In this document: positions 6,400 through 39,470 of the stretch, piece by piece
Position numbering within the stretch: position 1 is the stretch's first letter
Layout: every line of letters begins with the position of its first letter
UHGV virus genome: UHGV-1472620
Length of the DNA stretch: 39,677 bases
Strand: one strand, 5' to 3'
Source: a virus
The notes under the pieces: generated by a model
The model's input: the letters and a program-made list of their open reading frames with translations, nothing else
The model's database searches: none
Told to the model about the DNA's origin: nothing
Position numbers and translations under genes: made by a program

Positions 6400-6536
6400 G
6401 GGCACCCCCAACTACCTCTAGGGTAAACATTCTATCGAAAGTATACGCATACTGGCAAAAAAATAGGCAGGCATTTTCTGAAATGGGATCAATCAAACCA
6501 CATAGGGTTGAAATAACGTGAGTTATGCATTTATTA

Positions 6537-6551: not shown

Positions 6552-6818
6552 ATTTACATCGCACTCCTCTTGTGCCATAGTAATCGGGCACTGGCAAAAT
6601 CCAGTGCCGGGATTGGTCTCCCGGATTACTACAGAGGCACATATGCCGCATAAGCGGTTTTTTTATGTGTAAAGCGCACCTATTCTATGGTGGGCTGTGT
6701 GGGGGCACCGAAAGGTGCGCCGGGTTCCTTTGTAGCCGGTAAGACCAACTCTGCACAGTTCACCACCATCTGATTGGTCTCAGCGGTGGTGATTAACCTA
6801 ACTACAAAGGTGATCGCC

Positions 6819-20553: not shown

Positions 20554-20991
20554 TTAACCAGTTACTTTTGAGCGGATCGGATACGGCGTATTGGCATCAA
20601 CATCAAGACTGATACCAGCAGTGAATTCGCCAGCCGTTAGTGGGCCAGTTGCGACGGAGTAGTTAACACGCAGATATCGCTGAACACCGGCAGGCACCTT
20701 TGCAGAAACAACTCGTTTACCTGCTGTCATGGCGGTCTTTGCCAGTGCGCCACTATCATAAATAGTGGTCCATGAGCTGTTATTCTCACTCGTCTGCAAC
20801 TGGATGTTTACAGTTGCATCACCGCTTGCCGCGGCGGCTGTGTTAACCAGCGCCCAAAACTCAAGCGGGTAACCCACGCCGATATCACGACGTTTTCCGT
20901 CAATTGGACCGAGATCGATTACGTCAGTAGAAGCCGCGGTATTCGTAACCGCCTGAGCTTCGGAGAACATCAACAGTTTGTCGGTGATCAT
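20554..20991 (-). CDS. Putative capsid accessory / decoration protein
   Basis: 145 aa, Thr/Ala/Gly-rich, immediately downstream of major capsid gene. Confidence 0.45.
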   Translation of the reverse strand: MITDKLLMFSEAQAVTNTAASTDVIDLGPIDGKRRDIGVGYPLEFWALVNTAAAASGDATVNIQLQTSENNSSWTTIYDSGALAKTAMTAGKRVVSAKVPAGVQRYLRVNYSVATGPLTAGEFTAGISLDVDANTPYPIRSKVTG

Positions 20992-21042
20992 CTTCTTTCT
21001 CCATTAGTGGGTCTGTTACGATCCACAGGTTAATAACAGGCG

Positions 21043-22035
21043 TTACACCACGCGGGCTTCTGTTTCCAGAAGCGCATCAGTTTCACGGATTGGTACACCA
21101 CGGAATGAAGTCCACCACTCGCCTTCTGTCTCTTTTACGCTGATCGCCAGAGATGTTTTCTCCAGAGATTGCAGATCAAGAGCCTGGCCTACAGTGCGGT
21201 TCATGTAGAACACCGGGCGACCCATGCCACGATTTGGAATGCGATGCAGTGCTTTAACCATCAACTTCGCAATATTTGCGGCAGAGGAAGGTTCTGAAAG
21301 ATTGCTGACATCGATGTTTGCAATGCGAACAACATAACGCCAGTCACGCAGAGCAAGTCCGTTGTCCCATTTGTAATGGGTACGGTAGCCTTCGTACTTG
21401 CCGCCATTCGCATCTTCCAGTGTCACCTGGCCTTTATCTTCCATCTGGATGCCAGCCTTCTGCCCTTTCGGGAAGATGCCATGCACGGTGTTTTCGCCCC
21501 ACACCACTAACCAGATTGAGGTGTTATCTGTACCCGTGCCACCAGCATCAATGATGTTCTGAGCATTACCCGCAGACAGGCTGGAATAGCGGGAGGACAG
21601 TCCCATAAACTGCTGAGGGTTAACGCTGGAATCACCATAAAACAACGTCTGCGCCATCTGCTGATTCATCGCTTCAATAAATGCGCGGTCTTCAGACAGG
21701 CGGAATTCGGCGGTATTACCGTTCAGATCAGCCAGTGACTTATCGACTTCAGCATAGGTTTCCAGCATTCCAACGGAATCGGTGACCTGCACTGTGGTTG
21801 ATTTGCTTGGCTGTACGCCATAGTTCAGCAAACGCCAGGTGGCCGAAGGTAAACCAGAACGAATGGTGGTTCGGTGTCCGGTAGGAAGGTTCCCTTCGAC
21901 AAAAGGCATATCCTGAAGGATCGGGTTAGTTTGACCGAGAAGCTCGATAATCTTATCGACTTTCCCGTTTGGATCGACGCGCTTACCCCAGTCAGCCAGC
22001 GTTAGCGCAGTTAAGCCTTTAACAGCCATTGTCAT
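21043..22035 (-). CDS. Major capsid protein
   Basis: 330 aa directly after scaffold-like gene in canonical order. Confidence 0.7.
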   Translation of the reverse strand: MTMAVKGLTALTLADWGKRVDPNGKVDKIIELLGQTNPILQDMPFVEGNLPTGHRTTIRSGLPSATWRLLNYGVQPSKSTTVQVTDSVGMLETYAEVDKSLADLNGNTAEFRLSEDRAFIEAMNQQMAQTLFYGDSSVNPQQFMGLSSRYSSLSAGNAQNIIDAGGTGTDNTSIWLVVWGENTVHGIFPKGQKAGIQMEDKGQVTLEDANGGKYEGYRTHYKWDNGLALRDWRYVVRIANIDVSNLSEPSSAANIAKLMVKALHRIPNRGMGRPVFYMNRTVGQALDLQSLEKTSLAISVKETEGEWWTSFRGVPIRETDALLETEARVV

Positions 22036-22043
22036 TTCCTCTC

Positions 22044-22745
22044 TTATTTGCCATAGAGCACTTCGGCCGCACTACGCTGGCCTTCATTACCACCGGTGAC
22101 CATGCCATCTTCAGACATCGCCTTTCCGATTTTCACGAACGTTTTGACCAGATCAGGGTGATTACCCAGCCCGGTGGTGTTCAGATATTCTTTGAGCTCA
22201 GGTGTCCCGAACTGGTCAAGCGCACGCTGTGCGGCGCTAAGGTTAGAAATCAACTTGTCGCCACCGATTTCTTTGTCAGCTTTTACATCCGCAGCCCACT
22301 GCTCGGTTGTTTTCTGCCAGGCTTCTGCCTGGCGCTGCTGAACACCTGCCAGAATCTTCGGATAAGCATCAACCAGCTTTTGCGCTTGCTCGTTGGTCAG
22401 GTTAAGTCCTCGCGCCACAGGCTCGAATTCCTTCAACGCTTCTGTATCCAGCTCTACGCCTTCGGCAGCCTGAAACTCGTACTTCTCAGGCGCACCCTCT
22501 GGTTTATTGCCGTCCTTTTTTTCATCCTGCTTATCGTTTTCAGGCTTTTTGTCATCAGCAGGTTTATCGCCATCAGCAACAGGTTGTGGCTTATCACCTT
22601 CCTGTTGTGATGGATCACCAACTGGAGCATGGTTATCACCTGCAGGCGCTGATGGTTCTGACGCAGCCGGAGCTGCTCCACCATCGACTGGTTGCTCATT
22701 GCAAAGACGGCGATACAGCAAACGCTCAAATAAATTCATGATCAC
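22044..22745 (-). CDS. Scaffolding protein
   Basis: Acidic, Pro/Ala/Lys-rich low-complexity N-terminal half then helical region; between portal and capsid. Confidence 0.55.
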   Translation of the reverse strand: MIMNLFERLLYRRLCNEQPVDGGAAPAASEPSAPAGDNHAPVGDPSQQEGDKPQPVADGDKPADDKKPENDKQDEKKDGNKPEGAPEKYEFQAAEGVELDTEALKEFEPVARGLNLTNEQAQKLVDAYPKILAGVQQRQAEAWQKTTEQWAADVKADKEIGGDKLISNLSAAQRALDQFGTPELKEYLNTTGLGNHPDLVKTFVKIGKAMSEDGMVTGGNEGQRSAAEVLYGK

Positions 22746-23038
22746 TCCTGTTCACTGGCCTCTTTGGCCATCTTCAAATACTGTTCAGGGCAATGCGCCA
22801 TAACGCGCTGAAACAGTTCCAGCGCCAGATTGCGTTGCCCCTCATTAAATGCCATTGCCATAGCGTCCATCGGTGAGATAGCGGAAAACACACGGCCTTT
22901 CTCCAGCACCGACCAGACAACGCGACGCCCCTGTTCACTGCTCATGACAAAGCGAATGTCATCAATTTCACGCTGCGCCATGTCACGTTGCTTACGGGCG
23001 TTTTCTTCTTTCAGTTGATCGTCTTCGTAATCTGTCAT
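22742..23038 (-). CDS. Small head assembly protein
   Basis: 98 aa, start and stop overlap neighbours. Confidence 0.45.
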   Translation of the reverse strand: MTDYEDDQLKEENARKQRDMAQREIDDIRFVMSSEQGRRVVWSVLEKGRVFSAISPMDAMAMAFNEGQRNLALELFQRVMAHCPEQYLKMAKEASEQE

Positions 23039-24714
23039 TGTGATTGCCCACCCTGACCACTAACTGCATTCGCCATAGCTGACAAAACACTCGGATCCGA
23101 AGTTTTAGCTTCGCTTAGCGTCTTGGCACCCTGTGCCGCCGCCATCCCCATCGCCATCATTTGTTGCTGCTGTTGCTGCTGTGCCCGTTGCTGGCGAGCC
23201 TGCTCAACCTGTTCCTGCGGAACAATGACGGTTGGAGACACTCCGGACATATCAGCGAATGCATCGATCGCCTGATCAACGTTGAGTTTGTCGAGAGCTT
23301 CTGGTTTCGCTTGCGCAAGTTGACCAATGAAGTTAACCGTGGACGCCAGACTGGACAGGCCGATAGACTTCTGCGCCTGAGCCATGACGGAAATGTATTC
23401 GACCTTCAGGGGCATACCTTCCATCGCGTCAGGCGGTGGCGGCAGCATGTTTTTACGCACCATCATCGAGAAAGCGCGGTCAATGAGAGGGTTAAGACAT
23501 TCGTCGTTCAGACGCTCCAGAACCGGCCCCAACATCAGAAGTTTTTCTTCTTTCATTTCGATCACCGCTTCAACAGGCATCGAGCGGGTATTGATGTTCT
23601 GCAACATCATGAACAGATCGACAAAGTAGGCGCTGTTAATGATTTGACGAGTGTCCTGAATGTCTGCTACCAGATCTGCTGTACTGGGGTTAACCAGATA
23701 AGCAGGCCTGAAACCATCCTGACCAGTAATCTGATCGATATACGTGATGTCGCCAGGAAGAAGGGAGGCGCGCTGATTCTTGAGGGAAGTCGGAGCAACC
23801 ATCGGCGGATTGGTGGCTTTATCAATCAACTGCGACTTGCGCTTCTGGAGAAGCTGCAATGCCTTAACAGGTCCAAGCGCCAGCATACCCGGGCATGATG
23901 ATCCATAAACATCTTCGCCATTAACTTCCCAGCGCGGAGCCATAATTGGAAACTCATCAAATCCGGACTCACGCAACAACTTGTCGTTATCGCCACCAAC
24001 CTCGTAATAAACCGATTTGAATGGCTTGTTCTTGCTATCCAGCTTCGATGTATCGCGGTCAATGTTCGGGTAAACCGAATGCATCACGTCAATCCACTTC
24101 TCGTAGGTGCCGCTTTCCCACATGCTTTTTACGGATTCGCTGACGTTATTTAGCCCGAACTCCTGAACAAGCTGACGAACAGTCATAGAGAACTTGCGAA
24201 AACAGGTGTCCACACTGCCACGAGGTGAGTTAGCCAGGTAGTAACTGCCTATCGGGAATGGCATTGTGCGAATGATGTCCTCGTCATCCTCCAGCACCGC
24301 CATTGCACCAGTGCTGTATGTGCCGAGGCTTCCGTATAACTGCGGAAGAGACTGGTAGAGATTCGACTTATTGAACATATCGTTCATGCGGTTCTGCACC
24401 GCCTCAAGCCACAACTTAACAGGGCCATAATCCATCATTTCAGGATCTGGCGTAGCCAGGCGAAACCACGGACGCGCGGGGCTTGTGATGCCTGACATCA
24501 TGCCGCTGGCGAGAGTGCGCGCCGCCATAGTCCCGGTCGAATCAATAATGCGTGTATTGCGTCGATCGTTACGGTTGACCTCAGAAGTCAGAAAGCGGGA
24601 ACCACGCGGGTTGATGTAATCACTCAACTCGCGCCAGTGCGGCTCGAACGACTGACGCTCGCTTTCAAGTTGTGCGAACTGTTTGTTCAATCGCTCTTTA
24701 GTTGTTTCCGCCAT
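23035..24714 (-). CDS. Portal protein
   Basis: 559 aa with Gln-rich C-terminus; first large gene of head module; GGAG Shine-Dalgarno before ATG 24714. Confidence 0.8.
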   Translation of the reverse strand: MAETTKERLNKQFAQLESERQSFEPHWRELSDYINPRGSRFLTSEVNRNDRRNTRIIDSTGTMAARTLASGMMSGITSPARPWFRLATPDPEMMDYGPVKLWLEAVQNRMNDMFNKSNLYQSLPQLYGSLGTYSTGAMAVLEDDEDIIRTMPFPIGSYYLANSPRGSVDTCFRKFSMTVRQLVQEFGLNNVSESVKSMWESGTYEKWIDVMHSVYPNIDRDTSKLDSKNKPFKSVYYEVGGDNDKLLRESGFDEFPIMAPRWEVNGEDVYGSSCPGMLALGPVKALQLLQKRKSQLIDKATNPPMVAPTSLKNQRASLLPGDITYIDQITGQDGFRPAYLVNPSTADLVADIQDTRQIINSAYFVDLFMMLQNINTRSMPVEAVIEMKEEKLLMLGPVLERLNDECLNPLIDRAFSMMVRKNMLPPPPDAMEGMPLKVEYISVMAQAQKSIGLSSLASTVNFIGQLAQAKPEALDKLNVDQAIDAFADMSGVSPTVIVPQEQVEQARQQRAQQQQQQQMMAMGMAAAQGAKTLSEAKTSDPSVLSAMANAVSGQGGQSQ

Positions 24715-24728
24715 TTCAATGACTCCGG

Positions 24729-24935
24729 TTACTGACCAAGCAGCGTTTTACCGCTGGTATTAGCGGTTGATGTGTCGCCCTGAGAACCGGTAAGCAGCGT
24801 AGAACTACGACCAGCAGCAGCGCGACGGCGACGAGTTTCTTCGTCTCGGGCATCAACAACGGCGGAATCCTGCTCCTGTGGTGCTGCCTGAACTTCTGGT
24901 GTTGCAGGCACTGATGGTGAGCTACCCATGCACAT
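24729..24935 (-). CDS. Small ORF upstream of portal
   Basis: 68-aa ORF ending 15 nt before portal ATG; low complexity. Confidence 0.3.
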   Translation of the reverse strand: MCMGSSPSVPATPEVQAAPQEQDSAVVDARDEETRRRRAAAGRSSTLLTGSQGDTSTANTSGKTLLGQ

Positions 24936-25025
24936 ATCAATGACTCCGTACGCAATTAAATTATTACCAATTTAACCACATATGATTTATTTATCGTAGG
25001 CAGTTGACATTTAACGCGCGAATTA

Positions 25026-25040
25026 TTACCCTTCGGGTAA
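25026..25040. promoter_or_regulatory. Operator-like palindrome TTACC-N5-GGTAA
   Basis: TTACCCTTCGGGTAA upstream of portal/head operon. Confidence 0.5.
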
Positions 25041-25362
25041 CAAAAAAGTTCATTCCGGTTACTAACCTGACTGGCTTGTCGTTAAATTGAACAGGTGGAG
25101 TGAGCTTTTATTTTGAGCAGTACGGCGTATGGCACATGCGACGATAGCGGTCTGGATACGTTTAAGGGGCACCCTACCTTGCTCGGGCAAACGAACCAGG
25201 TAGCCGGAATGTGCAAGTCGAGCGGTTTTATTCCGCGCACGGGGATTCACCATCCCGGCGATTCGGTGTGACGCCTCGGAAGAGACGAGGGTACAACGAT
25301 GAGAGCATTTATGGAGCCGCGACAAAGTGTGGCGCCTTAACAGGCTAAGTGCTCTCAGCGTT

Positions 25363-25439
25363 GTGGCATTAGCTCAGTTGGACAGAGCAACCGCCTTCTA
25401 AGCGGTTGGTCGCAGGTTCGAATCCTGCATGCCACACCA
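25363..25439 (+). tRNA. tRNA-Arg, anticodon UCU
   Basis: Cloverleaf folds by eye: acceptor GTGGCAT/ATGCCAC, D-stem GCTC/GAGC, anticodon stem ACCGC/GCGGT with loop CTTCTAA, T-arm GCAGG-TTCGAAT-CCTGC, encoded CCA. Confidence 0.9.
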
Positions 25440-25637
25440 GAATCACGCCTAAGGACCGTGATGCCAGAAGTTCCAGGGGCTTGGCGGTGATGGTTTCCCT
25501 TGAAGGACTATCACCGCCCTTTTTACAGCAGGACGCCATTGCGATGACTTCATGCTGTAAACCCGTACAGCCACGGAAGGCATAACTCATTGCTTCCAGT
25601 TCGCCCGGTTCGCCGGGCATTTTTTTAAGGTGAGATT

Positions 25638-25994
25638 ATGAACGACCAGCAAATCGAAAAAGAAATCGTTGAGAAAGGCAAAACCGCTCCGCGAGTTACG
25701 CCTCAATATATCGAAAGCATCATTCTTGAAGAGCATTTCTTTACTGCTTATGACGGCATTCGTGCTGCCAATATGGGCGTTGGCGATTCATGGACAGCGC
25801 ATAAATCTACAGACCTCCTGACTTTCTGCGTATTGGTACTGAAGAATGGCTTCACCGTCACCGGAGAGAGTGCCTGTGCAAGTCCGGAAAATTTTGATGC
25901 AGAAATTGGTCGGAAGATTGCCCGGCAGAATGCTGTAAACAAAATCTGGATGCTCGAAGGTTACTTGCTGAAGCAGAAGTTAAGCGAGCAATAA
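25638..25994 (+). CDS. Small conserved phage protein (resembles the N4 gp49 / Sf6 gp66 family by recollection)
   Basis: 118 aa with strong AAGGTGAG Shine-Dalgarno; on + strand inside the minus-strand late region. Confidence 0.55.
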   Translation: MNDQQIEKEIVEKGKTAPRVTPQYIESIILEEHFFTAYDGIRAANMGVGDSWTAHKSTDLLTFCVLVLKNGFTVTGESACASPENFDAEIGRKIARQNAVNKIWMLEGYLLKQKLSEQ

Positions 25995-25998
25995 CACC

Positions 25999-26010
25999 GT
26001 GACATGTCAC
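25999..26010. promoter_or_regulatory. Perfect 12-bp palindrome GTGACATGTCAC
   Basis: Identical to 28264-28275; sits just after the stop of 25638-25994. Confidence 0.5.
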
Positions 26011-26014
26011 AAAC

Positions 26015-26042
26015 AGCCAGCCGATGAGCTGGCTTTGTTTTA
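26015..26042 (+). terminator. Intrinsic terminator
   Basis: Stem AGCCAGC / GCTGGCT with loop CGATGA then TTGTTTTAT. Confidence 0.65.
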
Positions 26043-26084
26043 TCCTCACCAGAGGATATCAACGACATTATCCCCACCAGCGGA

Positions 26085-27560
26085 TTAAGCATAGGGATCG
26101 TAATCTGTGATGGCCTTGCCTTGCTGGTTCTGCTGACCGGGAATTCGCAGACGCTTCGACACAGGGAACGCAAACGTCAGCAGTAGCGCATCGCCTTTAC
26201 CAGGAGAACGCCCAAGCCGCTCTTTGATATCTTCCTTCGGTTCGATAACGATTTTACCGTCCACTCGAACTTTGTACTCTGCCGCCGACAGGTCGTCCGC
26301 TGTTTCATGGTCATCCAGCATGCCGCCAAGCCTCAGCCATGTCTTGCATGAGTTGAACATCTCCCCACGCTTGTTGAGCATCTGCGGGTCAGTAGACGCG
26401 CCACCGAACGGAACAAGTTGCCATGTACGACCCCAGCCGTCACCGATTGACTTCAAACCGGTTCCGTAACCAAAGTCGATGAACACCGCGTCAGCCTGAT
26501 ACTGGTCTTCAAAGTCAGCGATACGCTTCGCCATAATCAGATCGTCGGTAGTCTTGTTTCCAGTCCACAGCACCTTACTGTGTAGCCCCTGCCGCAGGTA
26601 TATCACAGCGTCATCAACGCCGGAGTATGCCGGGTCAACGCCGATTATCACCGGAGCATGTGCAACCTGCGCAGCGGTTACCACCCGTTTTATTGCCTCG
26701 TCAGTAAGACCGGTAGGGATAAACTGCAATTCAGATGCATCAGGGAATATGCCACGCACACGGATTTTAACGAAGTCGCTGTCTTCCCCGTAGTCATCAA
26801 CCCATTTCTGCAACTGCTGTTTGTTGGTACCTTCCACCGTCCGACTGTCAATCTGCGCAGTTTTCCAGCGGTGTTTATACTTGCGGAAACATTCACGGAA
26901 ACGTCCGGTATTACGCGTCGGGTTTCCGAACGCCACCCAGATAATCTCAGTGTCTTCGTCCGTTAGCGCACCCTCGGCAACTTCCCACACCAGATCCGCA
27001 ATGTTCGACGCTTCATCGAATACCACGATGATGCGTTTGCGCTCATTGTGTAATCCGGCGAATGCCTCAGTGTTGTGCTCAGACCAGGGGATTGCGTCAG
27101 CTCGCCACCGCTTGTCGTGCCCAGGGTCATTGCTGTACATCGCGGTAGCGGTACAGGTAAACCAGTCTTTCGTGATAGCAAGGTTCGACCACTTGATAAT
27201 TTCCGGCCAAGTCTTCGTTCGTAGCTGGTTGTCGGTGTTGGCGGTCACCACGACCTTACAATCCTCGCAAGTGGACATGCCCCAGTTGATCAGCATTGAG
27301 ATGAATGCGGATTTACCAATACCGTGACCAGAAGCGCGTGCCAGCATAAGCGGCTGATAGCGCGTCTCTGGATTCTGCAGGTGATCACGTATCTCTCGGA
27401 ACGCATCAGCCTGCCACTGACGTGGGCCGGTGGCATGTGCCAGTTCAGTCCCCTCTTCCCCCCACGGGAACGCATAGAGGGCATAGCCAAGCGGATCGTG
27501 AGTGAACCCTGCAATATCTTCGATTAACTGCTCTTCAGGAGATAACACTGCATCTGTCAC
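26085..27560 (-). CDS. Terminase large subunit
   Basis: 491 aa, Walker A-like GHGIGKS, overlaps terS stop. Confidence 0.9.
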   Translation of the reverse strand: MTDAVLSPEEQLIEDIAGFTHDPLGYALYAFPWGEEGTELAHATGPRQWQADAFREIRDHLQNPETRYQPLMLARASGHGIGKSAFISMLINWGMSTCEDCKVVVTANTDNQLRTKTWPEIIKWSNLAITKDWFTCTATAMYSNDPGHDKRWRADAIPWSEHNTEAFAGLHNERKRIIVVFDEASNIADLVWEVAEGALTDEDTEIIWVAFGNPTRNTGRFRECFRKYKHRWKTAQIDSRTVEGTNKQQLQKWVDDYGEDSDFVKIRVRGIFPDASELQFIPTGLTDEAIKRVVTAAQVAHAPVIIGVDPAYSGVDDAVIYLRQGLHSKVLWTGNKTTDDLIMAKRIADFEDQYQADAVFIDFGYGTGLKSIGDGWGRTWQLVPFGGASTDPQMLNKRGEMFNSCKTWLRLGGMLDDHETADDLSAAEYKVRVDGKIVIEPKEDIKERLGRSPGKGDALLLTFAFPVSKRLRIPGQQNQQGKAITDYDPYA

Positions 27561-28153
27561 TGATTACCATCCTGACGTTCTTTGAGTCGCTTCCTGGCTG
27601 CCGCTATGCGATCAGCAATTGTCACATTCACATTAACATCCAGGCGCTCTTTGAACGCGTTGACGTCGACGTGCTTACCGATAAGCTCGAGGTTCTTCAC
27701 CTTGTCAGGCCATTTAATTTTTTTGAGGATTGTCTCTATCGAATCCTCGTTCATGTTCATGATGGTCGATGACAGATCAAAGCCGCTAAGCGTAGTGCGC
27801 CAGATTTTCGGCCACTCGCGGATTGGCTTAAGGCTCCCATCGTCGTTGAGGATGTCGATCACGTCCATCTGGTCGATCTCCACCAGGCGCATGAGAACGT
27901 AATCAGCACTGACGCGCATTCGTTTGTTGCGCTCCTCCATCAGCTCGGCAATCCGTTTTTGAATGCGTTCATCGCGCATCATGACACTGGCTTTAACTGC
28001 CGCTGTATTTGGGGAGAATCCTGCGTTAATCGCTGCCTGAGTCTGGTTTTCAGGCGTTTTGATGTATGACTGGCAATAAGCCTCCTGCATTGCTGTTAGT
28101 GGCTTAAATTGCGTTGATTTGCGTTTATAGGTTTTAGGTTCAGCAGGCATCAT
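27557..28153 (-). CDS. Terminase small subunit
   Basis: Upstream of and overlapping terL; start placed at ATGATG 28153 rather than the TTG 28231 used by the ORF track. Confidence 0.7.
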   Translation of the reverse strand: MMPAEPKTYKRKSTQFKPLTAMQEAYCQSYIKTPENQTQAAINAGFSPNTAAVKASVMMRDERIQKRIAELMEERNKRMRVSADYVLMRLVEIDQMDVIDILNDDGSLKPIREWPKIWRTTLSGFDLSSTIMNMNEDSIETILKKIKWPDKVKNLELIGKHVDVNAFKERLDVNVNVTIADRIAAARKRLKERQDGNQ

Positions 28154-28194
28154 AACCACCGTGGTAATAGTTACCGTTGTGGTAATAGTACCAT

Positions 28195-28222
28195 GCAAAA
28201 TAAAGCCGCCATAGTTGGCGGC
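28195..28222 (-). terminator. Intrinsic terminator upstream of terS (tR'-like)
   Basis: On minus strand GCCGCC-AACTAT-GGCGGC followed by TTTATTTTG. Confidence 0.5.
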
Positions 28223-28263
28223 AGTATTCAAAACCCATCAAATTCATCATGCATAATCTACTC

Positions 28264-28275
28264 GTGACATGTCAC
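28264..28275. promoter_or_regulatory. Perfect 12-bp palindrome GTGACATGTCAC (late promoter / regulator site candidate)
   Basis: Identical to 25999-26010; contains GTGACA -35-like hexamer on both strands. Confidence 0.5.
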
Positions 28276-28613
28276 ACTATTAATTTCGTTTCATGCCAGC
28301 CTTTAGTCACCCAGCATTGCGAGTCACCATTACACGGGCATGAATTAACGGGAACTCTCTCGCCGCACTTACCGCAAAGTTTTCTGCTGATCGATTTTAT
28401 ACGCCCGCGCACACGTGCATCATCCTGGCGGATCAGCAGCGCGATGTACTCGGCCATTTCATAGGGATCGCGACTAGGGCGCCGGGCGGCGCAGTTCCGC
28501 GCCAGCATTTCAATTTCCTGAGCATCAAGCACAATTTCCAGCTTACACACACCAGATGCAGCTTGTCTGGCTCTCTGAGCGGCTTTGCGCTCTGCTGCTG
28601 ATTTAGCCATCAA
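28272..28613 (-). CDS. Small Cys-rich protein, candidate late-gene regulator (Q-like antiterminator?)
   Basis: 113 aa, C-terminal CGKCG ... CPCNGDSQC zinc-ribbon-like cluster; last early gene before terS. Confidence 0.4.
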   Translation of the reverse strand: MMAKSAAERKAAQRARQAASGVCKLEIVLDAQEIEMLARNCAARRPSRDPYEMAEYIALLIRQDDARVRGRIKSISRKLCGKCGERVPVNSCPCNGDSQCWVTKGWHETKLIV

Positions 28614-28884
28614 TATTTACCTTTATCGCGAACACCTTTACCGGTTTATCACCGAAGTGGGGATGTGTGATTGTCTTGATTTCATATCCGTCATACTGGA
28701 CGTTAATTCTGCGGCTGGAGTCGTCGCGCTTCGGATATCCCTTTGTGATAATCAGGCGGTCATACTCCCGGAACATAATTCGCTTATTCCAGTAGTCATT
28801 ACACAGGCGATACTCTTCCGTTTTCTCTCCGCGAATCATGGCATCGAAGTATTCACCTTTAACGGCAAGTTGCAGGTTAGCCAC
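28603..28884 (-). CDS. ASCH/DUF3850-like small protein
   Basis: VKGEYFDAMIRGEKTEEYR pattern; GTG start with GCAAGGAG Shine-Dalgarno. Confidence 0.5.
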   Translation of the reverse strand: MANLQLAVKGEYFDAMIRGEKTEEYRLCNDYWNKRIMFREYDRLIITKGYPKRDDSSRRINVQYDGYEIKTITHPHFGDKPVKVFAIKVNIDG

Positions 28885-29236
28885 GGTTAACTCCTTGCTG
28901 TGTGGCGTCGAGTAATAAATCCCACAACCGCTGAGAGCAATTTCCGCATGTACAGCGTTGACCCACAACGTTTATCGCGTTGCTGATTTCCGGCGTTACC
29001 TGTTTAGGAACCATAACCCAACCATCCGGAGTTACCGGAGAGTTGCCATCCAGCGCGTTCAACTTGTAAGCCTGGCTTACAGGTTCTGCACTATCAGCTT
29101 CGCGCCGCTTCTGTAGCTCTGCTGCCATCGCTCTCACGACTTCAACTGGTGCCCTTGCAGCAAACTCTATGTTGGTGATCAGCTCATTAAGATATTGCTC
29201 GCTGGGATACTGTTTCTTATTGGTAATAGTGGTCAT
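28877..29236 (-). CDS. Hypothetical early protein
   Basis: 119-aa ORF coupled to neighbours. Confidence 0.45.
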   Translation of the reverse strand: MTTITNKKQYPSEQYLNELITNIEFAARAPVEVVRAMAAELQKRREADSAEPVSQAYKLNALDGNSPVTPDGWVMVPKQVTPEISNAINVVGQRCTCGNCSQRLWDLLLDATQQGVNRG

Positions 29237-29239
29237 GTG

Positions 29240-29527
29240 TTAGTCCTCATCCACTTCAACGCCATCTTTCAGCGTGATGCCGTGCCAATCATCAGCCCAA
29301 CTGGTTAGCCCTGGCGCATCAATGCTAGGCATATAGACGCTTGCAGTGTGGTAGCCCTTATCGTTATCAATGCTGGCAACGTGCTCGCCGTTGTATGCGC
29401 TCAGCGTGTCCAGGACGCTATAAAACTTTCCTCCGGCTGCCCTGAAATCCTTTACAGCCTTCACAAGGCGATTCCACGCTTTTTCCTGTTCTGGCGTCAG
29501 GTCGATTAATTCCTGCAAAGTTGCCAT
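29240..29527 (-). CDS. Hypothetical early protein
   Basis: Start placed at internal ATG adjacent to stop of upstream gene. Confidence 0.4.
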   Translation of the reverse strand: MATLQELIDLTPEQEKAWNRLVKAVKDFRAAGGKFYSVLDTLSAYNGEHVASIDNDKGYHTASVYMPSIDAPGLTSWADDWHGITLKDGVEVDED

Positions 29528-29528
29528 A

Positions 29529-30152
29529 TCACTCTCCTTTGATGCGAATGCCAGCGGCGCGCTCGGATTCACTTTGTTCCCAAAACCACTTGTGAAGCTC
29601 CATAAGCTTTTCGTCAATCGGTGCATATTTGCGATTAAAGTAGGCCTGAGCATCTTTCTCAGATTCGTCCGGCAATTCGCCAGGGCCAAACAGTGTGTTA
29701 TAAATCCATGCCAGTCCGCTCTTAGCGTCGCCAGTTGCCTGCCATTCGATAATCGCAGCCTGCATGACCAGAATGTTTTTCCCGATTAACAGGTCCAGTT
29801 CTTTGAACCGGTTGCGGATGTATGCATTCTCGCTTTGTAATTCAGCGTTGCGCTTCTCTGCGGCTTCCAGCTCAACTCGCAGCTTCCCAACCGTAAGCGC
29901 AATATCCTCGTTCTCCTGGTCACGGCGTTTTATGTATTGCTGGTTTCTTTCCCGTTCATCCAGCAGTGCCAGCACCGTTTCCGGGCCGGTCAGCAGTTTG
30001 AAGTTGTTAATCGCATCAATATCAACATCGCTATCTTTAAGCTCCTTTTCGCTTAACAAGTCATCATCGGCTGGCAACGTTAACAGGCGTTCCATTGCCG
30101 GAATTGCGCGTTCTGCCGCTTCACGCAGTGCCTGATAGTCAATCTTGCTCAC
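29529..30152 (-). CDS. Coiled-coil early protein (possibly ead/Ea22-like)
   Basis: 207 aa, highly charged helical; family call from recollection only. Confidence 0.45.
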   Translation of the reverse strand: MSKIDYQALREAAERAIPAMERLLTLPADDDLLSEKELKDSDVDIDAINNFKLLTGPETVLALLDERERNQQYIKRRDQENEDIALTVGKLRVELEAAEKRNAELQSENAYIRNRFKELDLLIGKNILVMQAAIIEWQATGDAKSGLAWIYNTLFGPGELPDESEKDAQAYFNRKYAPIDEKLMELHKWFWEQSESERAAGIRIKGE

Positions 30153-30682
30153 TGGTTGCCTCCTTTGCGAAGCTTCGCCGCAAAATCAGCCGCAACCTCT
30201 TTGACCATATTGGATAGCGGAGTGCCACCTCCGAATTTTTCTGAGAACATCTCTACCCCCTGCGCCCGTACTTCAGCCAGGAAAGCATCGGTGGCTGGGG
30301 TTTCGATATCGTTAATTTCAGGAAGAATCTCTTCCCATGTAGCGATATCGCCATTCAAATGCCATCCGGCAATTCCACTGGAGTTATCCGCAACACTCCG
30401 AACGGCTTCAATAGCTTCATGCATTGCCGCATTCTCCGCCGCCAGCGCCGAAAACTTCTCGTGTGCCAACTTAACAGCCGAATCAGCCTGCTTAATTGAC
30501 TCAATCGCTTTCTGCTGGTCTTCGGCCATCGCATTAGCACGCACCAGTTGCACTTCCAGTTGCGTTGCCAAATCGCTGATCAGCTTTGCCACACTGCGCA
30601 TATCAACGGCACCACATTCTGCTTTCAGTTCCGAAGCCATCTCATGCCCGGCGGCAACTAACCCTTTGATATTACTTTCCAT
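30149..30682 (-). CDS. Hypothetical early protein, Ala/Glu-rich helical
   Basis: 177-aa ORF overlapping next gene start. Confidence 0.45.
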   Translation of the reverse strand: MESNIKGLVAAGHEMASELKAECGAVDMRSVAKLISDLATQLEVQLVRANAMAEDQQKAIESIKQADSAVKLAHEKFSALAAENAAMHEAIEAVRSVADNSSGIAGWHLNGDIATWEEILPEINDIETPATDAFLAEVRAQGVEMFSEKFGGGTPLSNMVKEVAADFAAKLRKGGNQ

Positions 30683-30743
30683 CTTTACCCTCGCTTATCC
30701 ACATAACTTATTGATTACATTGATAACTAAAAAGATCGTCGAT

Positions 30744-31088
30744 TCAGAACTCTTCGATGTTCCAGCCACCACCTGCTTTCTTTGGTTTAACCGTTACCCC
30801 GATGATTCGGAACGGATACTGATCTGCGGCGACTTTGGTTTTCACCCTGGCGTCGTCGGTCCAGAAACCTTTCACTTCGTGCAGTTCCATCTCGCCGGTG
30901 GCGAGCATCACAGCAAAATCTGGCGTATAGAACGTGTTGTCAGCTAACCGCAGCTTGATACCCTCAAATCGATACCAGACGATTTCTCCTGCACGTTTAC
31001 GCAACTCAAGGTGCTGGCAATACGCAGATTCTGTTTTGTTCATCTGGCCTGTTTTGAGTCGACCAAGAGCCTGTATCTGTTTTCTCAT
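30744..31088 (-). CDS. PD-(D/E)xK nuclease-like protein (VRR-NUC / DUF1064-like)
   Basis: YTPDF ... ELHEVKG motif arrangement; downstream of replication genes. Confidence 0.5.
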   Translation of the reverse strand: MRKQIQALGRLKTGQMNKTESAYCQHLELRKRAGEIVWYRFEGIKLRLADNTFYTPDFAVMLATGEMELHEVKGFWTDDARVKTKVAADQYPFRIIGVTVKPKKAGGGWNIEEF

Positions 31089-31153
31089 AATTTACCCCTG
31101 AGGTAATTAAAAACCACATAAGACACGAAATCAATAGAGTTTAGAATACTTTG

Positions 31154-31168
31154 TTACCCAGAAGGTAA
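31154..31168. promoter_or_regulatory. Operator-like palindrome TTACC-N5-GGTAA
   Basis: TTACCCAGAAGGTAA between P-like gene and nuclease-like gene. Confidence 0.5.
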
Positions 31169-31205
31169 CTATCAAGGCGTAAAAAAATGCGCTATCGCGC
31201 TGGTA

Positions 31206-32006
31206 TTACTTGATAAATCCTGCCGCCTTTCCCCGCCTGTATTCCTCCATCAGCCACTGTGCCGGTGTTATTCCCCCCAATGTGGCGGCGTTAGGCATAC
31301 ACCCGAAACTTCGCCCTGGTGGATGGTAAACGTCTCTCCCTGTGTCCGGAGGCGTACTCATGGGTTCTGGCTTTGCCTGTATGCTGATCACCGGATCGGG
31401 TATCTGCTGTCCGGAAGCTACCTTTTTCGCCCAATCATCGAGCAGCCTGCGCGCGTGTTTCTCAACCTCAATCTCGCTAAGCTGGCGCTGATACATTGCA
31501 CGGCGGGTATCACATACGACCCAGTACATAACCGGATGTCGCCACGGGAATCTTTCGGGACCACCAGGATATAAACTTTTTTCCTTGCTGTACCGGTGAA
31601 ACTCCGCCATCACATCGTCAATGGTGACGCCAAGAACCATCTTGCTGTCTTTACACCACTTGATGAATTGCCCTGGCGACGGCCAGAACGGAGATTCACT
31701 GGCGCGGGCGTGGCGCATACCAGCAGAAACCTGTTCACGGGTTCGGATCCCCCCTTCGGCAAACGCAGCAATCCACTGCTGTTTTGCAGCAACTTCCTGC
31801 TCTGGAGTCTTCAGGTTGGTTACTACTGCCGCCGGAAACAGTTGTTTCAGCTGTTTGAAAAGGGCATCAACAAGCCTCTCTGCTGACATGTTCACCACAT
31901 TGTCATTGTTGACGTACTGATGCTCATAACCTGACATGCGAGAAAGGGCTTCTCCGTCACGGTTTTGTATCGCGGTAAAAACGTTGTTCACAAGAAATCC
32001 TCCCAC
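31206..32006 (-). CDS. Replication protein P-like (helicase loader)
   Basis: REQVSAGMRHARASESPFWPSPGQFIKWCK aligns with lambda P (EQVNAGMRVARRQNRPFLPSPGQFVAWCR) as recalled. Confidence 0.75.
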   Translation of the reverse strand: MGGFLVNNVFTAIQNRDGEALSRMSGYEHQYVNNDNVVNMSAERLVDALFKQLKQLFPAAVVTNLKTPEQEVAAKQQWIAAFAEGGIRTREQVSAGMRHARASESPFWPSPGQFIKWCKDSKMVLGVTIDDVMAEFHRYSKEKSLYPGGPERFPWRHPVMYWVVCDTRRAMYQRQLSEIEVEKHARRLLDDWAKKVASGQQIPDPVISIQAKPEPMSTPPDTGRDVYHPPGRSFGCMPNAATLGGITPAQWLMEEYRRGKAAGFIK

Positions 32007-32803
32007 GCTTCAGGGCTGTTCCAGTGCGGAACGTTGTTATCAGGTAATGTTGATTGCTTCTGTCTGCTAATCTGCAGCCGCCTTGCCAGCTTCTGCTCCC
32101 ACTGTGCCTGATGGTATGCCTTACCCTCAGCCATCCAGTAAATTCTGAACTCTGCAAGCTCCTGTGCCGTTGGCAGACTGTCCAGGTAGATCCCCTGCAA
32201 TGAGCTTTTCCGAAGAAAGTCATCTGATGGCTGCCATTGTTCATGCATGACAAATTTGCCTAATTGCCCTGGCCCACCAGGAGGAACAAAGTTATTCATC
32301 ACGGCGTTGTTTGCGCCGGGGTCATGAGGCACAGAATCCCCGCTTTTTGTCCTGCTCTCCCTCTCTTGGTTAAATGACTGGTTATATGACTGGTTCTGGA
32401 TCCCGTTTTTGGGATCATTCAACATCCCGTTTTTGGGATCATTCAACATCCCGTTTTTGGGTATATTCCCGTTTTCGGTAACATTACCGTTTTCGGGTTC
32501 ATTACCCCCTTCCCGGTTGCCTTTAATGTTCCCGTTTTTGGTTATATTAAGAGAGAAAACCCGCACTCTTTTCGTCGCACCCTTTCTCTCTCCGGTATCT
32601 GAAATAAGCCCCATTTTCATGAGCGATATAAGCCCGGCCTGCACGGTTTTTTTATTCAGGCAAGTGTCTTTAACGAGGCGTTCTATGCTGGGGTAGCAGA
32701 GGTTATATTCATCGGCTCTGTCAGCCATCGAGAGCAGTATGAGCTTTAATGACGAGCTACCTGGATCTGTCTCCCAGGCCCAATCTGTTGCATGTCTGCT
32801 CAT
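31988..32803 (-). CDS. Replication initiator O-like
   Basis: N-terminal HTH-like domain, Asn-rich repeat linker encoded by the iterons, then C-terminal domain; immediately upstream of P-like gene. Confidence 0.7.
   Translation of the reverse strand: MSRHATDWAWETDPGSSSLKLILLSMADRADEYNLCYPSIERLVKDTCLNKKTVQAGLISLMKMGLISDTGERKGATKRVRVFSLNITKNGNIKGNREGGNEPENGNVTENGNIPKNGMLNDPKNGMLNDPKNGIQNQSYNQSFNQERESRTKSGDSVPHDPGANNAVMNNFVPPGGPGQLGKFVMHEQWQPSDDFLRKSSLQGIYLDSLPTAQELAEFRIYWMAEGKAYHQAQWEQKLARRLQISRQKQSTLPDNNVPHWNSPEAWEDFL
32373..32550. repeat. Origin of replication iterons inside O-like gene
   Basis: Direct repeats TCCCGTTTTTGGGATCATTCAACA x2 (32401-32448) plus at least four degenerate CCGTTTT(T/C)GG copies and ATGACTGGTT x2. 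Confidence 0.75.
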
Positions 32804-32818
32804 GATTAATCTCCGCTA

Positions 32819-33019
32819 TCAGCTTGAATGTTGTGGGGAGGAATTAATCATGATCTGCTTAATCTCTGCCCTGATGCGACGGTTTGATTCCATAGTGCAC
32901 TCAACACAGTGTCCGTTGTAAACCCAGCGTTCACTGTCATGTCCGTGCTTACATGGTTTTCCGGTGTAGTAGCGTTTAAGTCCGCGCTTTGCGGCATCAA
33001 TACGTGTAATAATTTCCAT
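32819..33019 (-). CDS. Small zinc-finger protein
   Basis: CKHGHDSERWVYNGHCVEC cluster; between Cro-like and O-like genes. Confidence 0.45.
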   Translation of the reverse strand: MEIITRIDAAKRGLKRYYTGKPCKHGHDSERWVYNGHCVECTMESNRRIRAEIKQIMINSSPQHSS

Positions 33020-33099
33020 GGTAAGCCCTGTTATTAGTATTGGGATTACGGTCATTTTGTGCTGACACAAAAAAAAGATCAACCAGATTTGGTTTTTTA

Positions 33100-33114
33100 T
33101 TACCTTTGAGGTAC
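33100..33114. promoter_or_regulatory. Operator-like palindrome (one mismatch)
   Basis: TTACCTTTGAGGTAC. Confidence 0.4.
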
Positions 33115-33169
33115 GAATAGATATGAAAAGACCGCCGGATGGCGGTCTACAGAGGGTTGTGGATGGATA

Positions 33170-33400
33170 TCATGAGTAGAAGAAGTATGCCAGTTCTGCT
33201 TTTGAGCGCAGCCATTGTCTTGTTTTACAGGCTTTAAAAAGCCCATTCATCAATACCTTACCTGGCATTTTGCGCTTACCTGTTAAGTGAGTCTGGATAT
33301 AGTGACTCGTCGTTCCGGCTTCCTGTGCGAAGGCTTCACGCTCATCCGGAGTAAGTGCAAGCCAGTGCTTTTTGAAATCGAAATGTCCGTTATCGCTCAT
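33170..33400 (-). CDS. Cro-like regulator
   Basis: 76-aa ORF divergent from repressor; first gene of minus-strand early operon. Confidence 0.5.
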   Translation of the reverse strand: MSDNGHFDFKKHWLALTPDEREAFAQEAGTTSHYIQTHLTGKRKMPGKVLMNGLFKACKTRQWLRSKAELAYFFYS

Positions 33401-33436
33401 AGCTATTGCCTGATATTTATTTCAGATAATAAATAT

Positions 33437-33499
33437 TCACCCATAAGGTAACAAAAATCAAGGATAGTTACCTATGAGGTGCATTTACCTGTTGGGTAA
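33437..33499. promoter_or_regulatory. Immunity region operators (three sites)
   Basis: TCACCCATAAGGTAA, TTACCTATGAGGTGC and TTACCTGTTGGGTAA between divergent Cro-like and repressor genes. Confidence 0.65.
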
Positions 33500-33554
33500 T
33501 ATTGCTTTAAATTGAATCATCTACTGATTCATATATGAGGCGATTTTCCAGAAA

Positions 33555-34139
33555 ATGAAAAGTATCCAGGACGTCCGCAGGCAAAATCTCAACGACTTGA
33601 TCGACCGTGAATTCAATGGTGTTCAGACGCGGATGGCAGAAAAACTTGGAACTCAGGCAAATCTGGTAAACCGCTGGGCTCTTGGCAAGAAGGTTATCGG
33701 CGACCAGGTTGCGCGAAAAATTGAAGCTGCCGCCAATAAACCCCGTAACTGGCTTGATATCGATCGCTCGCTTTCTCAGGAAGGTTTTCAGCCTGTCGGC
33801 CCAAGCGACATTGGTCAGCTGGCGGCTCACAACCTGGAACGCTGGATGAGCGAAAGCCGCGACCTTTCAACGCAGGGAAAACTTCACCGCGCATCCGGCG
33901 TCGCCCAGGTGACAATCAGTCGCCTGTTAAACAATGAGGTCAGCGTTTCCATTTCCACCCTGGAGAATGTTGCATCCGCATTCGGGCGTCACGGATATGA
34001 ACTACTGATTCACCCGCACGACCCTGCGACTATCAACTATGACCGCTCGCGCTACGCATTGTTACCCGAAACCGAGAAAGCAAAGATCGAAAGTTACATT
34101 GAATTTGTCATCAACCAGAACGAAAAAAGCAAACAATAA
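33555..34139 (+). CDS. Prophage repressor with tandem HTH domains and no peptidase domain
   Basis: Two Cro/C1-type HTH-like segments; no Ser-Lys autopeptidase region seen. Confidence 0.7.
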   Translation: MKSIQDVRRQNLNDLIDREFNGVQTRMAEKLGTQANLVNRWALGKKVIGDQVARKIEAAANKPRNWLDIDRSLSQEGFQPVGPSDIGQLAAHNLERWMSESRDLSTQGKLHRASGVAQVTISRLLNNEVSVSISTLENVASAFGRHGYELLIHPHDPATINYDRSRYALLPETEKAKIESYIEFVINQNEKSKQ

Positions 34140-38219: not shown

Positions 38220-39470
38220 TTATTCCCCCGCCATCCACTTCTCAAACTTCGACGGGGAGAACGGAATCAGATCCGTATGCTCCCCGTCAATCCATGAATC
38301 AATCATATCGGCCCACTGCTGCAACATGTAGGCGCGCTGTCTGGCGTATTCCGCTTTGTTATATACGGCGCGCACACCTTTCTGCTCATGTGCCAGAGCC
38401 TTTTCAATCCAGTCTGAAGGATAACCAGCCTCATGCAACAACGTACTGGCTGTACGGCGCATATCATGTACAGTGAAGTCCTGAATATGCTCACCATCTT
38501 CATTTATTATTTTCACCGTTCTGTCGATCAGAGAGTTCAGCGCGGCATTAGATAATGGCTTCCGGATATTGTAACGACCAGGAACCAGATATTCACTTCC
38601 ACCAGCGCACATCTGCAACCCGACCAATATATCCTGTGCCTGTTTAGGCAGGTAAATAACGTGCGCCCGGCTTCCCTTCATGCGGTCTGGAGGAATTGTC
38701 CATGTCCATTTTTTAAAATCTATTTCATCCCACGTTGCATTGGTGAATTCGCCCTTACGAACCATAGTGATAAGCACCAGTTTTAAAGCCATTTTCATAG
38801 TGCCCATAGCACCAATGGCATCCAGCGTGCGGAAGAACAGGCCAATTTCTTCTGGTGTCAGTGTTCGCTCTCGTGGTTTAAATATGGCGATAGACGAAGG
38901 TTTAATGTCAGCCGCAGGATTAAACAAACCATGACCACGGTCATTGGCGTGACGGTATACGCTACTGATGATCTCCCTGGCCTGCACTGCTGTTGCCCGG
39001 CCACCGCGTTCGACAATCCGGTCACACAAATCACGAACCATCGATGTGGTAATTTCAGCCATCATTTTATTGCCAAGAACCGGAAGTATGTCACGGTCGA
39101 TCACCGCCTGTTTCATTGCGCGGGTACTGTCAGCCAGGATGACGTGTTTCATATAACTGTCGGTATGTACCGCAAACGTCTCGGCACCACGAATCTTTTT
39201 GATACCGTCACGTTTAGCCGCAGCCGGTGACTGGCCTGCTTTAAGCAGCTTCTTTGCAGCAATCAGTTCTTCTCGCGCTTCTGCCAGGCTGATACCGTCA
39301 CGCCCATACTGCCCGATTACCAGTGTTTCGCGGCGACCGTTGATACGGTAGTCATAGCGAAACGAGACCGTGCCTGACGTAAGCACAGCTACATACAGCC
39401 CGTCACGATCGGAAACCTTGTACAGTTTGTCCTGCGGCTTGAGGTTTTTTAATTTTGTATCGGTAAGCAC
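38220..39470 (-). CDS. int: Tyrosine integrase
   Basis: 416 aa; C-terminal HDMRRT and downstream Tyr region typical of phage integrases; adjacent to attR. Confidence 0.9.
   Translation of the reverse strand: MLTDTKLKNLKPQDKLYKVSDRDGLYVAVLTSGTVSFRYDYRINGRRETLVIGQYGRDGISLAEAREELIAAKKLLKAGQSPAAAKRDGIKKIRGAETFAVHTDSYMKHVILADSTRAMKQAVIDRDILPVLGNKMMAEITTSMVRDLCDRIVERGGRATAVQAREIISSVYRHANDRGHGLFNPAADIKPSSIAIFKPRERTLTPEEIGLFFRTLDAIGAMGTMKMALKLVLITMVRKGEFTNATWDEIDFKKWTWTIPPDRMKGSRAHVIYLPKQAQDILVGLQMCAGGSEYLVPGRYNIRKPLSNAALNSLIDRTVKIINEDGEHIQDFTVHDMRRTASTLLHEAGYPSDWIEKALAHEQKGVRAVYNKAEYARQRAYMLQQWADMIDSWIDGEHTDLIPFSPSKFEKWMAGE

Follow-up and report, generated by a model that had tools for sequence, protein, structure and literature searches.

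The virus genome UHGV-1472620, a sequence of 39,677 nucleotides (nt) that was analysed over its full length and is called the window below, is a prophage of the phiV10/epsilon15 type (Uetakevirus), with ~97% identity to phiV10 across the region considered here. This region raises the question of what a tRNA-Arg gene with anticodon UCU and a small protein-coding gene, both on the plus strand, are doing between terminase and portal genes transcribed from the minus strand. An earlier note, made from the letters alone, had described them as an island opposite to the late genes and ended by a terminator. This layout was borne out: both flanks are on the minus strand, and a terminator-like hairpin (T3) was found at the 3' end. 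The plus-strand unit is nevertheless larger than first noted, since it is an insertion of ~1 kb (~25004-26044) that has the large terminase gene on one side and the gp3/portal genes on the other, the tRNA and the small gene being its 3' two-thirds; a promoter with its operator (25004-25040), a structured RNA and two internal hairpins (T1 and T2) had been overlooked. The tRNA and the small gene form a genuine island of an ordinary kind. Novelty lies in the structured RNA, which is fused to the 5' side of the tRNA, widespread, unannotated and experimentally accessible. Taken as a whole, the unit is rather probably an early accessory and counter-defence cassette, composed of a processed RNA, an AGA-reading tRNA-Arg and an Acb4 sponge.

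The evidence for the RNA is comparative, and its helices and pseudoknots (Table 1) were derived by hand from alignments. Across 24 diverse sequences, 94.7% of the cells are paired and 12 pairs are altered on both sides, a level that none of 500 shuffles reached; in controls where the partners were slid along the alignment, pairing falls to 27-45%. In loci from ~20 bacterial species, 92.7% of the cells are paired and 13 of the 19 pairs are altered on both sides; these loci come from bacterial genomes outside the seed but were fitted to the model, so that the figure somewhat favours the structure. The base of hairpin P6, for which the apical cassette was replaced by NNNN to permit alignment, has 92.6% of its cells paired and six pairs altered on both sides. 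Pseudoknot PK2 covaries (CACC/GGUG to AACC/GGUU), and PK1, which is invariant but for one wobble, is only consistent with pairing. Many of the pairs are G-U and would be A-C mismatches on the opposite strand, and the RNA is therefore read from the plus strand. Conservation has sharp edges at 25122 and 25366. Folding of single sequences gives z-scores of -2.0 to -2.6, which is modest; it is the comparison, and not the energy, that argues for structure. A further hairpin, P3, between the core and P4, was dropped from the model, since in 29 of 30 variants its folding did not surpass that of shuffled sequences.

A covariance model built from this alignment (R1) finds one copy in the window (137 bits) and one in phage P1. 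Searches against Rfam 15 gave no match in 25122-25362 at gathering thresholds, and at E <= 10 only the tRNA and chance matches were obtained over 24700-26100. Literature searches (put-like RNAs, the phiV10 tRNA-Arg, the P1 ban operon and literal strings of the core sequence) retrieved no description of the RNA.

Conserved unpaired segments of 19 nt and 11 nt are found in P1-like, lambdoid and epsilon15-like phages across >10 genera, and are strongly conserved in every copy recovered, the core itself having served as search pattern. Hairpin P6 consists of a conserved base of 17-19 bp and an apical cassette of ~42-50 or ~92-104 nt. Copies that are otherwise identical, such as those of the window and locus L031, can have wholly different cassettes, and about a dozen discrete types are shuffled among scaffolds. 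The idea that the cassettes are tRNA mimics was rejected, as a T-arm-like GGTTCGATTCC is present only in a few of them (L100, SPC32H, L096) and ARAGORN calls none. Locus L100 carries in P6, ~250 nt after the core, a tRNA-like insert with a good T-arm (AAAGGTTCGATTCCTTT) and an odd anticodon arm, uncalled by ARAGORN, and a second complete P6 module follows this insert in tandem. At loci without a tRNA, GTGGTGAAT/C is often directly 3' of P6 and is conserved across different downstream sequences; it may be a start codon region, a 3' tail of the RNA or a remnant of a tRNA junction. When the whole RNA and its P6 cassette were searched for antisense targets in the window, only chance-level 9-13-mers were obtained, all with E > 1. 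A resemblance to the 3' end of 16S rRNA, seen by eye, was discarded as unsupported.

A third of complete E. coli genomes (1840 of 5426) contain the element, which is annotated in none of them. Its exact 19-nt core was found in 24 species-representative genomes, all the named ones belonging to Enterobacterales genera, and two further contigs with the core were binned from metagenomes under the label Bacillota. Among lambdoid phages, for instance mEp460, cdtI and Stx2c phages, the element lies, unannotated, directly 3' of the repressor gene; in at least 62 of the 127 loci collected, the next gene upstream, on the same strand, encodes an S24/helix-turn-helix (HTH) repressor. In mEp460, two operator-like palindromes flank a promoter, and the element starts ~60 nt after it and is the first leftward-transcribed feature. 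UTI89, by a note in the mEp460 annotation, has a copy as well. One phage recorded under Stenotrophomonas has the element in the same post-repressor position. In phages P1, P7 and D6, the first ~170 nt of the RNA lie in the ban operon, which C1 controls, with trnI on one side and ban on the other. The P1 copy (NC_005856 71023-71200, or 3501-3678 of locus L127; 138 bits) comprises the 5' domain only, and none of the 535 annotated features of the P1 record falls on this stretch. An unannotated open reading frame (ORF) of 14 codons follows the RNA in P1, its stop overlapping the start codon of ban. Judging by these surroundings, the RNA sits in repressor-controlled early operons of three unrelated phage groups (the present one, phage P1 and the lambdoid phages).

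tRNA genes are frequent neighbours of the element: tRNA-Arg stands directly at its 3' end in ~30 loci, and a tRNA(CAT) ends ~15 nt before its 5' end in ~16. In Phytobacter ursingii (L133 2210-2288, L153 1186-1264), ARAGORN calls a 79-nt 'tRNA-Ile(AAT)' ~430 nt downstream of the element, which may be a tRNA-like structure and not a true tRNA. In phage epsilon15, the RNA is reduced to its first ~75 nt (L006 1813-1900), and the remainder has been lost together with the tRNA. The junction lies between TTCCCTTGA-like motifs, which are present in short-type copies in the loop of P2 and also in that of T1 (25495-25505 in the window), and the loss was apparently a deletion by recombination between TTCCCTTGA repeats.

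Table 1. Positions in the window of the features of the plus-strand unit, of related palindromes and of flanking genes
Feature	Position	Strand	Evidence or remark
Structured non-coding RNA, 245 nt	25122-25366	+	Covariation, conservation boundaries
RNA 5' domain	25122-25293
Helix P1	25123-25127/25139-25143
Helix P2	25152-25155/25196-25199
Helix P4	25242-25246/25252-25256
Helix P5	25274-25278/25286-25290
Pseudoknot PK1	25132-25137 with 25209-25214		Helix P1 loop GCACAU with core AUGUGC
Pseudoknot PK2	25248-25251 with 25265-25268		P4 loop CACC with downstream GGUG
Long hairpin P6	25292-25365		Replaceable apical cassette ~25306-25347
Core GGTAGCCGGAATGTGCAAG	25199-25217		Search pattern, embedded in conserved blocks
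Sigma-70-type promoter (predicted)	25004-25032	+	Read from sequence: -35 TTGACA 25004-25009, 17-bp spacer, -10 TACCCT 25027-25032
Operator palindrome TTACCCTTCGGGTAA	25026-25040		Overlaps -10 and start site
TTACCnnnnnGGTAA sites	1787, 5016, 6412, 6537, 7584, 25026, 28153, 28171, 31092, 31154, 33100, 33437, 33485, 34197, 34259, 39513
tRNA-Arg, anticodon UCU (TCT), CCA encoded	25363-25439	+	ARAGORN; Rfam RF00005
Hairpin T1	25483-25528 (hairpin 25483-25518)	+	Consensus scan, minimum-energy fold; 14-bp stem then CTTTTTACAG
Hairpin T2	25603-25628 (hairpin 25603-25618)	+	Consensus scan; GCCCGGTTCGCCGGGC then ATTTTTTT, directly 5' of the ribosome-binding site of the acb4-like gene
Acb4-family gene (PF13876, Phage_gp49_66), 118 aa	25638-25994	+	Pfam
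Hairpin T3	26015-26044 (hairpin 26015-26034)	+	Consensus scan; tail TTGTTTTATC; between the convergent acb4-like and large terminase genes
Large terminase	26085-27560	-	PHROG 2, E = 3.4e-52
Portal	23035-24714	-	PF12236, E = 1.8e-187
gp3-like small gene	24729-24935	-
Integrase gene	38220-39470		~13 kb from the tRNA

The expression of the unit can be approached through the sequence upstream of the RNA. A TTGACA-N17-TACCTT geometry is kept in 24 of 29 tRNA-linked sister loci in spite of a varying spacer sequence, and also in epsilon15; promoter activity is predicted for 25004-25032. The palindrome that overlaps it was found in all 29 tRNA-linked loci, and the homologous site of epsilon15 is annotated as a repressor binding site. 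Allowing at most one mismatch, the window contains 16 TTACCnnnnnGGTAA sites for 0.64 expected (25-fold), a number that was reached in none of 100 shuffles. Pairs of these palindromes flank a candidate HTH repressor gene (33555-34139), and those at 6412 and 6537 precede an isrK/C4/Bro-N antirepressor module (6.4-7.5 kb). The arrangement suggests a repressor that acts, in P1 fashion, on many dispersed operators, by analogy with the C1 sites of phage P1. Within the antirepressor module, Rfam matches to isrK (6588-6664, 74.7 bits) and to C4 antisense RNA (6683-6770, 78.6 bits) lie directly 5' of the Bro-N antirepressor gene (6774-7511), and this region is a P1-like immI module inside an epsilon15-type phage.

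With its promoter overlapped by an operator palindrome, the unit probably stays off in the lysogen and would be switched on early, upon infection or induction. The resistance assay on lysogens proposed in the earlier note is thus probably the wrong test, lytic expression being expected from an operator that covers the island promoter. The unit has the marks of a moron or accessory unit, namely its own promoter and terminator, an orientation opposite to that of its neighbours and a cargo that varies among relatives; it departs from classic morons in that the lysogen appears to keep it repressed.

The tRNA proved to be well formed, as had been claimed. ARAGORN reports it as the single tRNA of the whole window, tRNA-Arg(TCT), and its cloverleaf scores 74.6 bits with RF00005, above the gathering score of 29 (E = 1e-14). 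As it is placed between structural genes and ~13 kb from the integrase gene, it is internal to the prophage and is not the attachment site, as the earlier note had also stated. The tRNA itself was already known, since the same gene is annotated in the records of O157 typing phages 9 and 10, phiv142-3, SPC32H and SPN9TCW. Uetakevirus tRNA-Arg(UCU) genes have the same terminase-portal position, are 97-98% identical in E. coli phages and show no material difference; the phiV10 RefSeq record is without this tRNA and has an overlapping ORF annotated across it instead.

In comparison with argU of E. coli K-12, the phage tRNA has an identical D-arm (including A20), anticodon loop (CUUCUAA) and T-arm; differences are found in five of the seven acceptor-stem pairs, in the anticodon stem and in the variable loop. 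The changes in the stems are compensatory, so that pairing is kept, and the discriminator base is A in the phage tRNA and G in argU. Identity elements for arginyl-tRNA synthetase (ArgRS) are A20 and C35; both are present along with the UCU anticodon, and by these identity rules the tRNA should be charged by the host ArgRS and should read AGA. The earlier note had also suggested a spare tRNA against anticodon nucleases that target tRNA-Arg. Anticodon-loop variants have been described among phage tRNAs that evade nucleases (PMC10264068), and no change in the anticodon loop was found here relative to the host isoacceptor argU. Among the host tRNAs that retron Eco2 nicks in the acceptor stem is tRNA-Arg (PMC12916289), and the altered stems may leave room for resistance to stem-reading nucleases, as a lead only. 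The neighbourhood favours the idea of a spare tRNA, since the next slot carries Acb4 or Tad2 genes.

Codon use was then compared between gene classes. The ORFs of the window contain 8.7 AGA and 6.7 AGG per 1000 codons. By standard codon tables, E. coli uses AGA ~2 and AGG ~1.2 times per 1000 codons, and with the host figure taken from these tables AGA is ~4 times commoner in the ORFs of the window. The tailspike gene (2155-4911) has 21 AGA and 10 AGG in 918 codons (23 AGA per 1000), and the other AGA codons are mostly in large internal proteins and early genes. No AGA codon was found in the head and packaging genes (20554-28231: terminases, portal, protease, capsid and neighbours). The supply of a rare-codon reader, which had been proposed for the late genes, thus stands in part: AGA is raised over the phage genes as a whole and in tailspike, internal and early genes, and the head and packaging block falls outside it. 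Since these genes lack AGA, the most abundant late proteins can be made without the tRNA; a part in codon supply is plausible, but not one that would serve the bulk head proteins. An AGA-free head block beside an AGA-rich tailspike suggests different origins or expression constraints inside one phage.

The small gene, which had been described only as conserved, is real and could be further identified. Its 118-aa ORF has an ATG start preceded by AAGGTGAG, and matches PF13876 over profile positions 1-82 of 82 (E = 1.7e-34, 118.6 bits for a cut-off of 27). PF13876 is the Acb4 family, with 1,331 homologs, of which eight out of eight tested bind 3'3'-cyclic GMP-AMP (3'3'-cGAMP) according to a 2024 preprint; its members are described as tetrameric cyclic-dinucleotide sponges that block the cyclic-oligonucleotide-based antiphage signalling system (CBASS) (PMC11722364). 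The 118-aa protein is a probable cyclic-dinucleotide sponge against CBASS, ligand binding being predicted from family membership. It shares with the Acb4 of SPO1 a full-length match to the family profile, a small size and a phage location, and differs by an N-terminal extension of ~20 residues; the direct match to the SPO1 Acb4 structure (9e4w) is weak (43 residues, E = 0.006). The slot 3' of the tRNA is variable among sister loci. An Acb4-like gene occupies it in 12 loci, a Tad2-like gene (PF11195, E = 3e-24) in two others (L090 and L101, at ~+439 to +736 from the core), and unrelated small genes without a family match (142, 146, ~280 and 138 aa) are found elsewhere. With an Acb4-like gene here and a Tad2-like gene in relatives, the slot collects signal-sponge genes.

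While the anatomy of the unit, the covariation and the assignment to families are established by the data, the working of the cassette we infer from the sequence, for its timing and processing as for all its functions. Once the promoter is released, the first product would be the 245-nt pseudoknotted RNA. The first three bases of the tRNA (GUG) are, by sequence and by the P6 pair counts, the last paired bases of helix P6 of the upstream RNA. Because of this overlap, a single RNase P cut could free both RNAs, maturing the tRNA and setting the 3' end of the structured RNA. Hairpin T1 is conserved in Salmonella and Klebsiella relatives, the homolog of T2 is annotated as a rho-independent terminator in epsilon15, and the phiV10 record has a terminator at the place homologous to T3. 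With T1 and T2 in place, most transcripts would give rise to the two stable RNAs alone, and the Acb4-family gene, whose product would sequester the cyclic dinucleotides of CBASS, would be expressed by read-through. The tRNA would add to the low supply of AGA readers for those genes that are rich in AGA (tailspike, internal, early), and may also replace host tRNA-Arg if this is cut. The RNA itself would be discrete, processed and stable; it probably acts by its invariant unpaired core binding a protein or RNA polymerase, and probably not by antisense pairing.

Several known systems resemble parts of this scheme. The put RNAs of HK022 (putL and putR) are likewise structured, encoded in cis and placed 3' of an early promoter under repressor control, and their phage group too has no obvious N gene; put suppresses termination in cis through the zinc-binding domain of beta-prime. 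They measure ~70 nt and form two stem-loops in two copies, whereas the present RNA has 245 nt, pseudoknots, one copy and flanking tRNAs; no put motif was matched, and R1 gave no match at E <= 1 in HK022 21000-33500. DicF, a 53-nt antisense RNA that targets ftsZ, likewise stems from an RNA gene within an early operon that a temperate phage keeps under repressor control, and is released by processing, as predicted here, and the P1 ban operon contains a dicF-like segment and three tRNAs besides the RNA. The 245-nt RNA is five times larger than DicF, its conserved parts are structural and the window yielded no antisense target. Species 1 and 2 RNAs of T4 and the C4 RNA of P1/P7, which is cut by RNase P, are stable RNAs matured by tRNA-processing enzymes. 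Like the present RNA, they are stable products other than tRNA, either made on one transcript with a tRNA or tRNA-shaped, and RNase P sets one of their ends, as it would here; in the present unit position +1 of the tRNA is inside the closing helix, there is no sequence relation, and the processing is predicted from this geometry. Finally, GOLLD and ROOL are large ornate pseudoknotted prophage RNAs of 580-800 nt, often adjacent to tRNAs, from other bacterial groups and included in Rfam. Complexity, pseudoknots, a phage location and the proximity of tRNA genes are shared, but this RNA has 170-245 nt, belongs mainly to Enterobacterales and their phages and has no Rfam match.

The main alternative to a discrete RNA is a cis-acting one, that is, a processive antiterminator or anti-Rho leader, put-like, that would accompany the RNA polymerase which made it and bring this enzyme through the leader to the acb4-like gene and, by extension, toward ban in phage P1 and into the early-left operon in lambdoid phages. 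The position just downstream of repressor-controlled early promoters recalls putL (PMC9378689). Moreover, two terminator-like hairpins separate the RNA from the sole protein gene, and as ~600 nt of untranslated RNA precede the acb4-like gene, Rho should be invited. The conserved unpaired core suggests a surface for macromolecular binding, and in the mEp460/cdtI group the gene that comes first after the repressor gene is not N-like. We nevertheless consider this reading rather unlikely, given that the HK022 immunity/early region shows no similarity in sequence or to the R1 model, that there is one copy per phage and not two, at three times the size of put, that intrinsic terminators were not found downstream of the element in mEp460 or phage P1, that the P1 RNA is 2.3 kb from its promoter, and that the flanking tRNAs suggest an RNA that is cut free. 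An RNA that merely serves as a processing or stability platform, a folded 5' or 3' cap shielding the tRNA precursor or the downstream mRNA from RNase E and exonucleases, would agree with its constant sense orientation next to something that needs processing or translation, with the tolerance of P6 for any apical insert, even a tRNA-like one, and with a P1 copy that manages without P6. A protective fold would however not need 19-nt and 11-nt unpaired segments and two pseudoknots conserved across >10 genera, which makes such a role improbable. That the region 5' of the tRNA codes for protein on the minus strand, or is a site at the DNA level such as a recombination boundary, seems hardly credible. 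Minus-strand ORFs are indeed present (25062-25325, 25369-25620), with hypothetical proteins annotated in phiV10 (phiV10p04) and mEp460 (mEp460_037), and the element borders a variable cargo slot; but variation shows no third-position excess (0.174, 0.218 and 0.164 by codon position), indel lengths are evenly spread modulo 3 (33/31/25), one annotated ORF overlaps the tRNA itself, and the compensatory changes and many G-U pairs fit a plus-strand RNA and no DNA-only role. Given this lack of codon periodicity and the spread of the indels, the minus-strand ORFs antisense to the tRNA or the RNA (25369-25620, 25062-25325 and, in L004, 2943-3311) are almost certainly annotation artefacts and were rejected.

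A different objection concerns the tRNA, which could be a mere codon-supply gene in an island unrelated to defence, acquired with low-GC, AGA-rich cargo such as the tailspike. The AGA frequencies given above (overall and in the tailspike) speak for it, as do the argU-like anticodon loop and ArgRS identity base A20, and the tRNAs adjacent to the RNA are tRNA-Arg(UCU) and tRNA-Ile(CAU), which decode the two codons that E. coli uses least. Yet the tRNA is co-transcribed with a gene of an anti-CBASS family, and in sister phages with a Tad2-like gene; epsilon15 is viable after losing it, the highly expressed head genes are without AGA, and the acceptor stem is unlike that of argU at five of seven pairs, some defence nucleases being known to recognise tRNA stems (PMC12916289). 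This explanation is a serious possibility, although we are inclined to doubt it.

The counter-defence cassette that we prefer has difficulties of its own. The -10 hexamer agrees with the consensus at three of six positions, which leaves the promoter below the threshold of a standard consensus scan. The anticodon loop is that of host argU, without the loop change of nuclease-evading phage tRNAs, and the head and packaging genes are AGA-free. As for the RNA, no antisense target was detected in the window, the P1 copy is without P6, and the link with defence is one of neighbourhood in this one phage group; the RNA precedes a helicase gene in phage P1 and genes without known function in lambdoid phages.

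Beyond this unit, it may be proposed, tentatively and with more doubt than conviction, that the RNA founds a new class of phage early-operon effectors made of RNA only, common to P1-like, lambdoid and epsilon15-like phages. Such an effector would be either a protein-free processive antiterminator unrelated to put, or a decoy or sponge neutralising a target of host defence or takeover, with the P6 cassette as specificity module, and its 3' end would be made by the RNase P cut of the fused tRNA.

Phage tRNA-Arg(UCU) genes are common, and the small gene belongs to a recently characterised family, Acb4. What is gained on this side is a functional label: the post-tRNA slot is a carrier of signal-sponge genes, in a unit that is apparently repressor-controlled. 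Since phage P1, phiV10 and UTI89-type prophages are easy to manipulate, the role of the RNA is directly testable, and it bears on why phage tRNAs travel with other stable RNAs and on how early operons with long untranslated leaders escape termination.

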